Positions 61,441 through 61,481 of a stretch of DNA of 64,000 bases are shown piece after piece. Every line of letters begins with the position of its first letter. The first letter of the stretch is position 1. The notes beneath the pieces were generated by a model. The model was not told the DNA's origin and ran no database searches. It worked only from the letters and a program-made list of their open reading frames with translations. Origin of the DNA: Escherichia coli (GTDB lineage: Bacteria > Pseudomonadota > Gammaproteobacteria > Enterobacterales > Enterobacteriaceae); the NCBI RefSeq assembly GCF_016026235.1, contig NZ_CP065613.1. One strand, 5' to 3'. Position numbers and translations under genes: made by a program.

Positions 61441-61481
61441 CTGTAAATATCCTGGCATTAGTAATGCCAGGATATTTACAG
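61441..61481. repeat. 41-bp perfect palindrome (20-bp arms)
   Basis: CTGTAAATATCCTGGCATTA G TAATGCCAGGATATTTACAG between convergent ykgG and ykgH. Confidence 0.9.

Follow-up and report, generated by a model that had tools for sequence, protein, structure and literature searches.

A single-copy perfect palindrome between the convergent genes ykgG and ykgH of Escherichia coli and its possible role in read-through RNA

The genes ykgG and ykgH of Escherichia coli are convergent, and the spacer between them contains a perfect palindrome of 41 bp in the DNA analysed here (a stretch of 64,000 nucleotides, in the following called the window). The question raised by this locus is what such an element does at a place where two transcription units meet. 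A sequence-only reading had described it as different from a typical intrinsic terminator and had proposed a dimeric protein-binding site, a small mobile-element scar or a processing site. No mention of the palindrome was found in the literature searched; a neighbouring Term-seq end and an sRNA candidate are already published. The answer tentatively preferred here is that the palindrome acts as an RNA stem-loop without a U-tract, serving as a pause site or an exonuclease barrier for read-through from either side.

The locus and its palindrome

The palindrome covers positions 61441-61481 and is composed of two 20-bp arms around the single central base G61461, CTGTAAATATCCTGGCATTA-G-TAATGCCAGGATATTTACAG. 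The complementarity between the left arm (61441-61460, CTGTAAATATCCTGGCATTA) and the right arm (61462-61481) is 100%, and the G+C content of the arms is 35%; both the perfect symmetry around one base and the AT-richness had been read correctly from the sequence. The same is true for its position between convergent genes, as ykgG ends at 61336 on the plus strand and ykgH occupies 61577-62245 on the minus strand, the distance from the palindrome to the stop codons being 104 nt for ykgG and 95 nt for ykgH. It had also been noted that no U-tract flanks the palindrome, and indeed the plus strand continues with UGAAAAAGAC and the minus strand with AAGAGGAGCA. The features of the locus are:

60641-61336, plus strand: ykgG (lutC), the last gene of ykgEFG, transcribed toward the palindrome (RefSeq annotation of the identical locus of O145 strain RM9872)
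61337-61440, unstranded: the spacer half next to ykgG, the most variable segment, without an intrinsic terminator for ykgEFG
61441-61481, unstranded: the 41-bp perfect palindrome with 20-bp arms and centre G61461; RNA from either strand is predicted to form a 19-bp stem with a 3-nt loop
61441-61454, unstranded: outer 14 bp of the left arm, without lineage-level polymorphism among 16 diverse genomes
61455-61467, unstranded: the variable central 13 nt (loop and loop-proximal pairs), containing all lineage-defining substitutions
61468-61481, unstranded: outer 14 bp of the right arm, conserved except for one singleton
61484-61488, minus strand: U5 tract directly 5' of the palindrome; the K-12 Term-seq 3' end 324603 corresponds to window position 61484
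61489-61576, minus strand: ykgH 3'UTR, a putative Hfq-associated sRNA region with a weak terminator hairpin just before U5
61577-62245, minus strand: ykgH, an Escherichia-restricted orphan gene of low G+C content, convergent with ykgG

When the window was searched with the 20-mer CTGTAAATATCCTGGCATTA, allowing up to three mismatches, the two palindrome arms were the only matches, and none of 100 dinucleotide shuffles of the window contained a match to this 20-mer. A window-wide scan for inverted repeats of the hairpin type ranked the palindrome first in the 64 kb by a wide margin. The next-best repeats are imperfect, overlapping and 13-23 nt in size, leaving the palindrome as the only one that is both long and perfect. 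It is impossible that a perfect 41-bp palindrome has arisen by chance.

The spacer is 100% identical to that of E. coli O145 strain RM9872, and the curated K-12 annotation marks nothing in the ykgG-ykgH spacer. The G+C content, about 52% in ykgEFG, is only 32-40% in ykgH, and it changes at the spacer. No homologues of YkgH were found outside Escherichia; all matches have at least 74% identity and are labelled E. coli or Escherichia, and the only hint of a domain is a sub-threshold similarity of the Wzz/GNVR type. The ykgH promoter is marked as H-NS-associated in a published gSELEX table.

In several strains ykgH is annotated as a pseudogene or as truncated. The lesions include an internal stop in an O157:H7 strain, a frameshift in RM9088 and a shorter ORF in E2348/69; these side observations on ykgH cover window positions 61577-62245 and 62250-62430. 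Further on, at 62427-64000 on the minus strand, a truncated autotransporter β-barrel gene (hyxB-like) is followed by an IS3-family transposase. The hyxB-like gene is annotated in RM9872 as a pseudogene without the N-terminus. In K-12, betA is found directly after ykgH, which makes this flank of the gene a variable point of insertion.

Two symmetric Dcm (CCWGG) sites are located inside the palindrome, at 61451-61455 and 61467-61471, and the left one is destroyed in the B2 allele (CCTGG to CCTGA). On the minus strand the region just past the palindrome (window 61408-61440) contains a strong Shine-Dalgarno-like sequence, AAGAGGAG (61440-61433), and 7 nt after this a five-codon ORF, ATGACAGAACGGGGTTAA (MTERG, 61425-61408). 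The MTERG ORF is also present in K-12, where the Shine-Dalgarno sequence is weaker.

RNA folding and published transcript ends

The 41-mer RNA alone is predicted to fold with -27.8 kcal/mol (z -10.5) into a 19-bp stem with a 3-nt loop. In a 61-nt context the calculated energies are -29.2 kcal/mol for the plus strand and -33.0 kcal/mol for the minus strand, and when DNA parameters are used the palindrome folds with -19.1 kcal/mol. Like an intrinsic terminator, the palindrome is a stem-loop in a 3' untranslated region. It differs from such terminators in that the stem is AT-rich and without a 3' U-tract, and in that ykgH's own terminator is a separate element, a small hairpin followed by U5. A consensus terminator scan of 61200-61750 gave no terminators and no mapped end follows the stem, in agreement with the view taken from the sequence that this is not a typical intrinsic terminator. 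The UUUUU run at 61488-61484 on the minus strand, directly 5' of the palindrome, had been missed in that reading. In K-12 and O145 the hairpin just before U5 is a weak one, which with -10.3 kcal/mol does not surpass shuffled sequences; B2 strains have at the same place a textbook 6-bp stem followed by UCUUUUU.

An extended dyad, in which the whole spacer would be an inverted duplication, was considered and rejected. The 181-nt fold has an energy of -70.7 kcal/mol, but the duplexes formed by the flanks only are marginal (shuffle fraction 0.016-0.25). When the reverse complement of the left flank is aligned globally to the right flank the score is 15, compared with 14 for the complement-only control and 10 for the reversed-only control.

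The 3' ends of K-12 transcripts have been mapped by Term-seq in LB at OD 0.4, LB at OD 2.0 and M63 glucose, a sample to which ykgEFG-inducing conditions do not belong. Each of these three conditions gave a strong minus-strand 3' end at 324603 (Adams 2021; PMC7815308, supplementary file 1), with read values of 43,492 and 126,276 in two of the three condition tabs (PMC7815308). The sequence around this end is GACAATGACCGGGAAGGGAACCCGTTTTCAGGAATGGATGCCTGTCTTTTT/CACTGTAAAT, where the slash marks the end (PMC7815308). The window contains the published 61-mer without a mismatch (100% identity), which places the end at 61484. This is the final U of U5, and on the minus strand the palindrome begins 3 nt later. 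Mapping of 3' ends had been suggested as a check in the sequence-only reading; there is no end after the stem, and the minus-strand end that precedes the palindrome was not foreseen there. In the curated K-12 Term-seq list no plus-strand 3' ends are found in 3244xx-3246xx in any of the three conditions, and neither is there a minus-strand end at the distal foot of the hairpin (PMC7815308). The TERMITe supplements contain no entry for ykgG or ykgH.

Since the mapped end at 61484 precedes the palindrome, ykgH and the putative ykgH 3'UTR sRNA terminate before it and the palindrome is located outside the sRNA. Most simply, ykgH would end at a small intrinsic terminator of its own, with the palindrome directly beyond. 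The RNA in question, "ykgH 3'UTR", has been put forward, together with a target motif, as a putative sRNA that derives from the 3'UTR and associates with Hfq (RIL-seq, Melamed 2016; PMC5145812, PMC8175672). In a follow-up study its sRNA score was moderate and the length of its U-tract was given as 5; a Northern blot with two probes was negative, yet RNA-seq reads accumulate there (Bar 2021; PMC5145812, PMC8175672). The Northern probes map to 61495-61533, between the ykgH stop codon and the palindrome.

Bicyclomycin data show a Rho-dependent region on each strand (PMC7815308, supplementary file 2). On the minus strand the region peaks at 324578 (window ~61459) with a score of 3.5, which is inside the palindrome at the coarse resolution of the 800-nt windows used to define such regions (PMC7815308). 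On the plus strand the peak is at 324913 (window ~61794), antisense within ykgH, with a score of 6.7 and p=2e-23 (PMC7815308). The latter peak shows that transcripts arriving from ykgEFG extend past the palindrome until Rho terminates them, about 310 nt downstream of it. The plus-strand RNA past the hairpin has a C/G ratio of 1.4-1.5 over 60-150 nt and is rut-like.

Distribution and origin

The 41-mer is present in 5,141 of 5,426 complete E. coli genomes, at the same site between ykgG and ykgH. The median number of places per genome is two, corresponding to the two strands of one palindromic site, and the maximum of four would fit strains that have the locus twice, such as XL1-Blue with its copy on an F' plasmid. 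Many identical copies throughout the genome had been named in the sequence-only reading as the finding that would speak against it; the palindrome is single-copy in the 5,141 genomes and does not belong to a repeat family. It has in common with the REP/BIME and ERIC/IRU elements that it is palindromic intergenic DNA in a transcribed spacer. Unlike these, it is single-copy and AT-rich, shows no sequence resemblance to them and has no credible Rfam match, the Rfam scan giving only spurious, far sub-threshold matches to eukaryotic miRNA hairpins.

No independent copies were found on plasmids, where all matches are F' plasmids or mislabelled chromosomes with the same locus. The phage collection gave no copy, only one weak partial match of 36 nt (E=0.1), and the IMG/VR viral contigs gave no palindrome matches. 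A metagenome scan with a pattern tolerant to changes in the centre identified 19 contigs, 17 of which carry the same E. coli locus. The remaining two (L039 and L043) represent a single locus, which is unrelated and belongs to an organism of 53% G+C. This locus (L039 509-545, equal to L043 7692-7728) has an 18-bp hairpin, GGTAAATATCCTGCGCGC-TG-CGCGCGCAGGATATTTAC, with a GC-rich centre. It is found in a 35-bp gap between convergent genes and shares a 12-nt outer arm with the E. coli palindrome. A relationship between the two was considered, and the similarity was judged to be a coincidence in view of the unrelated locus and the GC-rich centre.

The nearest non-E. coli relatives of YkgG have 84-87% amino acid identity and lack the palindrome, the spacer and ykgH. 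They have a GC-rich hairpin a few bases after ykgG, followed by unrelated genes, and nothing in them aligns to the E. coli spacer. Examples of this hairpin, such as CCGCTCTGGCG...GCCAGAGCGG, are found in three contigs (L018 3125-3175, L021 3697-3750 and L023 3697-3750) and are without a clear U-tract. Thus in these relatives, too, the lutABC-type operon ends with a hairpin, although an unrelated one. As YkgH is found only in Escherichia, the relatives lack the spacer and the G+C content drops at this point, the spacer, the palindrome and ykgH form an E. coli-specific unit. An attempt to find outgroups by way of YkgH was abandoned, as the contig scan gave only two contaminant mini-contigs. Apparently divergent YkgH matches turned out to be artefacts, being frameshifted, broken by IS elements or G-to-A-converted.

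Some short-read contigs stop at the palindrome, two of them (L015 and L016) at its centre and a third (L044) one base short of the distal end. L015 and L016 show a pervasive G-to-A conversion as in bisulfite-type libraries, and this mimics divergence. Moreover, IS1 has hit this spot (window 61433-61460) twice, independently, in other strains (L008, E. coli RM9088, ~1718-2535, and L005, JNEC-KY203, ~3099-3160). One of the copies interrupts an arm of the palindrome and has a target duplication of 9 bp, ATATCCTGG. The other is located 7 bp to the left of the palindrome, and in this strain the palindrome and ykgH are lost. In L017 and L021 an IS1 adjoins ykgG or ykgH.

Allelic variation and constraint

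Three alleles make up 97% of the records. The perfect allele, with G (as in the window) or C (as in O157:H7) in the centre, accounts for 1,956 records (38%), the K-12-type allele, ..CCTGGTATTACCAATGCCAGG.., for 1,875 (36%) and the B2-type allele, ..CCTGACATTAATAATGCCAGG.., for 1,171 (23%). A comparison with the K-12 spacer, also suggested in the earlier reading, confirms the palindrome at the same place; the perfect form, however, is not that of K-12, but one of three common alleles, and 62% of the palindrome-carrying genomes have an imperfect one. The perfect form is by parsimony the ancestral one, because each imperfect allele differs at positions where the other lineages agree.

The lineage-defining substitutions are 61455 G/A, 61456 C/T, 61461 G/C/A and 61462 T/C, all within the central 13 nt. 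When non-singleton variable sites were counted in 16 diverse, non-independent genomes, substitutions common to at least two genomes were found at none of the 28 outer-arm columns, compared with 29 of 201 sites in the flanks (Fisher p=0.03) and 4 of 13 in the centre (p=0.007). Substitutions confined in this way to the centre are what one would expect if a stem of 14 bp or more is what counts. [quoted passage not shown] The diversity of the whole 41 bp is 0.045, matching that of the flanks (0.043-0.064).

None of the six variable palindrome sites in the 16-genome alignment shows a compensatory change; all are one-sided. A G-U pair is kept in the plus-strand RNA of the K-12 allele and in the minus-strand RNA of the B2 allele. 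As the changes are one-sided and the G-U pairs are on opposite strands, covariation gives no evidence for a structure or for a preferred strand. The variation data, from few and non-independent genomes, are thus modest evidence that selection may act on a stem of at least 14 bp or on two 14-bp half-sites. Alternatively, the central variability may reflect a mutational hotspot at the centre of the palindrome.

The three K-12 substitutions, 61456 C>T, 61461 G>C and 61462 T>C, are clustered within 7 nt, and together they create a perfect 5+1+5 sub-palindrome, TGGTATTACCA (window equivalent 61453-61463; L002 and L006, 4561-4601). The clustering suggests a single multi-nucleotide or template-switch event. 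The segment 61337-61440 is the most polymorphic one, with 20% segregating columns. A patch in it, GGCGGC--ACG versus GAAGGCATACG, with a 2-bp indel, separates the O145-like alleles from most others and suggests a small recombination or repair tract.

A possible barrier hairpin in read-through RNA

According to the preferred reading, any RNA crossing the ykgG/ykgH junction would fold the palindrome into a 19-bp stem-loop without a U-tract. The ykgH terminator is a separate element, with transcripts ending at U5, 3 nt short of the palindrome. Transcription of ykgEFG, which is without an intrinsic terminator, reads through the palindrome until Rho stops it some 300 nt downstream, antisense within ykgH. 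In this setting the hairpin would be a pause site and a barrier to 3'-to-5' exonucleases, setting or stabilising the 3' end of the ykgEFG read-through RNA, and it would act in the same way on the smaller part of the ykgH transcripts that is not terminated at U5. That the hairpin pauses the polymerase or blocks exonucleases is the likeliest of the explanations considered, because the palindrome is not the ykgH terminator, ykgEFG relies on Rho, and the RNA past the hairpin is C-rich. It is further consistent with a very stable hairpin on both strands, placed between convergent genes and kept in 5,141 of 5,426 genomes. On the other hand, the plus-strand end that would be predicted is absent from the curated Term-seq list for the three conditions. 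Compensation is seen at none of the six variable sites, and the diversity of the 41 bp (0.045) matches that of the flanks. The conservation of the outer arms was judged from 28 columns in 16 non-independent genomes.

An established class of stable stem-loops marks the sites at which Rho-terminated transcripts have their processed 3' ends (Dar & Sorek 2018, summarised in PMC7815308). As far as that summary describes them, the palindrome resembles these in being a strong hairpin without a U-tract, with a Rho region about 310 nt downstream on the plus strand and C-rich RNA after it. It differs from them in that the K-12 Term-seq list has no plus-strand end at the foot of the hairpin, and in its unusually long (19-20 bp), perfect and AT-rich stem. 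The palindrome is therefore grouped with the 3'-end-protecting stem-loops of Rho-terminated transcripts as an incomplete member, two of the three features being found.

Alternative explanations

Nearly as likely as a barrier hairpin, and likewise open to doubt, is that the palindrome is a neutral relic. It would have been made once, by inverted duplication or template switch, in the ancestor of E. coli at the time the low-GC segment with ykgH was gained, and would have been drifting without function since then. This would fit with the absence of spacer, palindrome and ykgH from the nearest non-E. coli relatives of YkgG, with the restriction of YkgH to Escherichia and with the drop in G+C content from 52% to 32-40%. 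The imperfect allele in 62% of the carriers, the lack of compensation and a mean diversity similar to that of the flanks point in the same direction, and there is no experimental signal centred on the palindrome. It can also be calculated that at a divergence of about 2-3% from the ancestor, roughly one third of the lineages would keep 41 bp unchanged by chance (own arithmetic). What a relic does not readily account for is that the outer arms are without lineage-level polymorphism compared with 14% in the flanks (p=0.03), that the palindrome is kept in about 95% of the genomes with no small deletions in any sampled genome, and that it is located exactly at a transcript boundary.

It is unlikely that the palindrome is a processing element, as the sequence-only reading had suggested among other roles. 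Minus-strand read-through would then fold the palindrome together with the flanking pairs UCUUUUUC/GAAGAGGA into a duplex of about 28 bp, and a cut by RNase III or another enzyme would give the U5 end. The flanks on this strand do lengthen the helix across the U5 tract, and double-stranded RNA of about 22 bp is of the size of an RNase III substrate (PMC6212723). The 61484 end is moreover very abundant (43,492 and 126,276), though the upstream hairpin is weak (-10.3 kcal/mol) and followed by only five U. However, simple intrinsic termination would itself predict a hairpin and then UCUUUUU, with the RNA ending at the last U, and in B2 the stem is a good one of 6 bp. The sequence at the end appears to misfit the RNase E motif RN/WUU, and the pairing of the flanks past the 41 bp is marginal compared with shuffles. 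Equally improbable is the wider proposal that the palindrome, and not the weak upstream hairpin, sets the 3' end of the ykgH 3'UTR, either by RNase III-type excision of the ~28-bp hairpin or by a protein bound to CCTGG...CCAGG that stalls RNA polymerase 13 bp upstream on U5. If this were true, a downstream element would make the 3' end of an sRNA without a strong intrinsic terminator.

Less probable still is an overlapping bidirectional terminator of the collision type (Ju 2019; Wang 2022), in which polymerases paused on both sides collide and terminate independently of Rho. The geometry would fit, as in both cases the genes are convergent and the hairpin, formed on both strands, is unlike an intrinsic terminator. 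In this class, however, the 3' ends overlap and each includes the hairpin, and termination is Rho-independent (10.1101/2022.10.23.513370). The mapped minus-strand end at the palindrome comes before the hairpin, no plus-strand end is listed, and the read-through is Rho-sensitive on both strands.

The DNA itself could also be the functional form, as an operator, a roadblock or a sigma-54 promoter located over the CCTGG...CCAGG centre or the 14-bp arms, but this is very unlikely. The dyad is perfect, and in O145 and O157 the centre reads TGGCAT-N5-ATGC on both strands, which is sigma-54-like. The K-12 centre TGGTATTACCA, beside the lactate operon, is GntR/FadR-like (TGGT-N3-ACCA). The minus-strand 3' end is 13 bp from 61471, which would be a typical distance for a roadblock, and conserved outer arms would suit a bipartite site. 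Half-sites 26 bp apart from centre to centre are atypical. The part carrying the motifs is the least conserved one and differs between the alleles, both 8-base motifs occur at chance frequency in the 64 kb, there is no adjacent promoter to regulate, and no symmetric plus-strand stall end is listed. A weak gSELEX peak of a minor sigma factor is found in the spacer (PMC5493296). On the other hand, neither sigma-54 ChIP-seq (text and supplements) nor RpoN gSELEX (text) lists anything at ykgG/ykgH in K-12. The sigma-54 promoter was rejected for the lack of a ykgG/ykgH site in these ChIP-seq and gSELEX papers. A GntR/FadR operator in the K-12 allele was likewise set aside; it would be lineage-specific, the motif occurs at chance frequency and its significance is doubtful. 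The dimeric protein-binding site proposed from the sequence thus finds no support, given a centre that differs between lineages, motifs at chance frequency and no listed sigma-54 site.

The last proposal, a mobile-element scar or miniature remnant with two terminal inverted repeats head to head, is already largely refuted and highly improbable: the arms are indeed 20-bp perfect inverted repeats starting with CTG, and the region attracts IS1, with insertions in or beside the palindrome in other strains, but the flanks CTCTT and TGAAA show no target-site duplication, the element is single-copy in every genome, searches of plasmids, phages and viral contigs gave no further copy of independent origin, and the metagenome matches are the same locus except for one unrelated hairpin sharing 12 nt.

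Implications

The palindrome is a tidy and fairly ordinary element that holds little to surprise a specialist. Of practical interest is that, being perfect, it breaks short-read assemblies at its centre and that it is a recurrent target for IS1. Only 3 nt separate it from the end of the ykgH 3'UTR, an sRNA candidate that has long stood without verification, and it is therefore relevant to anyone cloning, probing or deleting this RNA. If the hairpin buffers read-through, the locus would add to the cases in which E. coli keeps convergent transcription units that have no canonical terminator in common insulated from each other, and such buffering would explain how the ykgEFG (lactate-utilisation) mRNA gains a defined 3' end.
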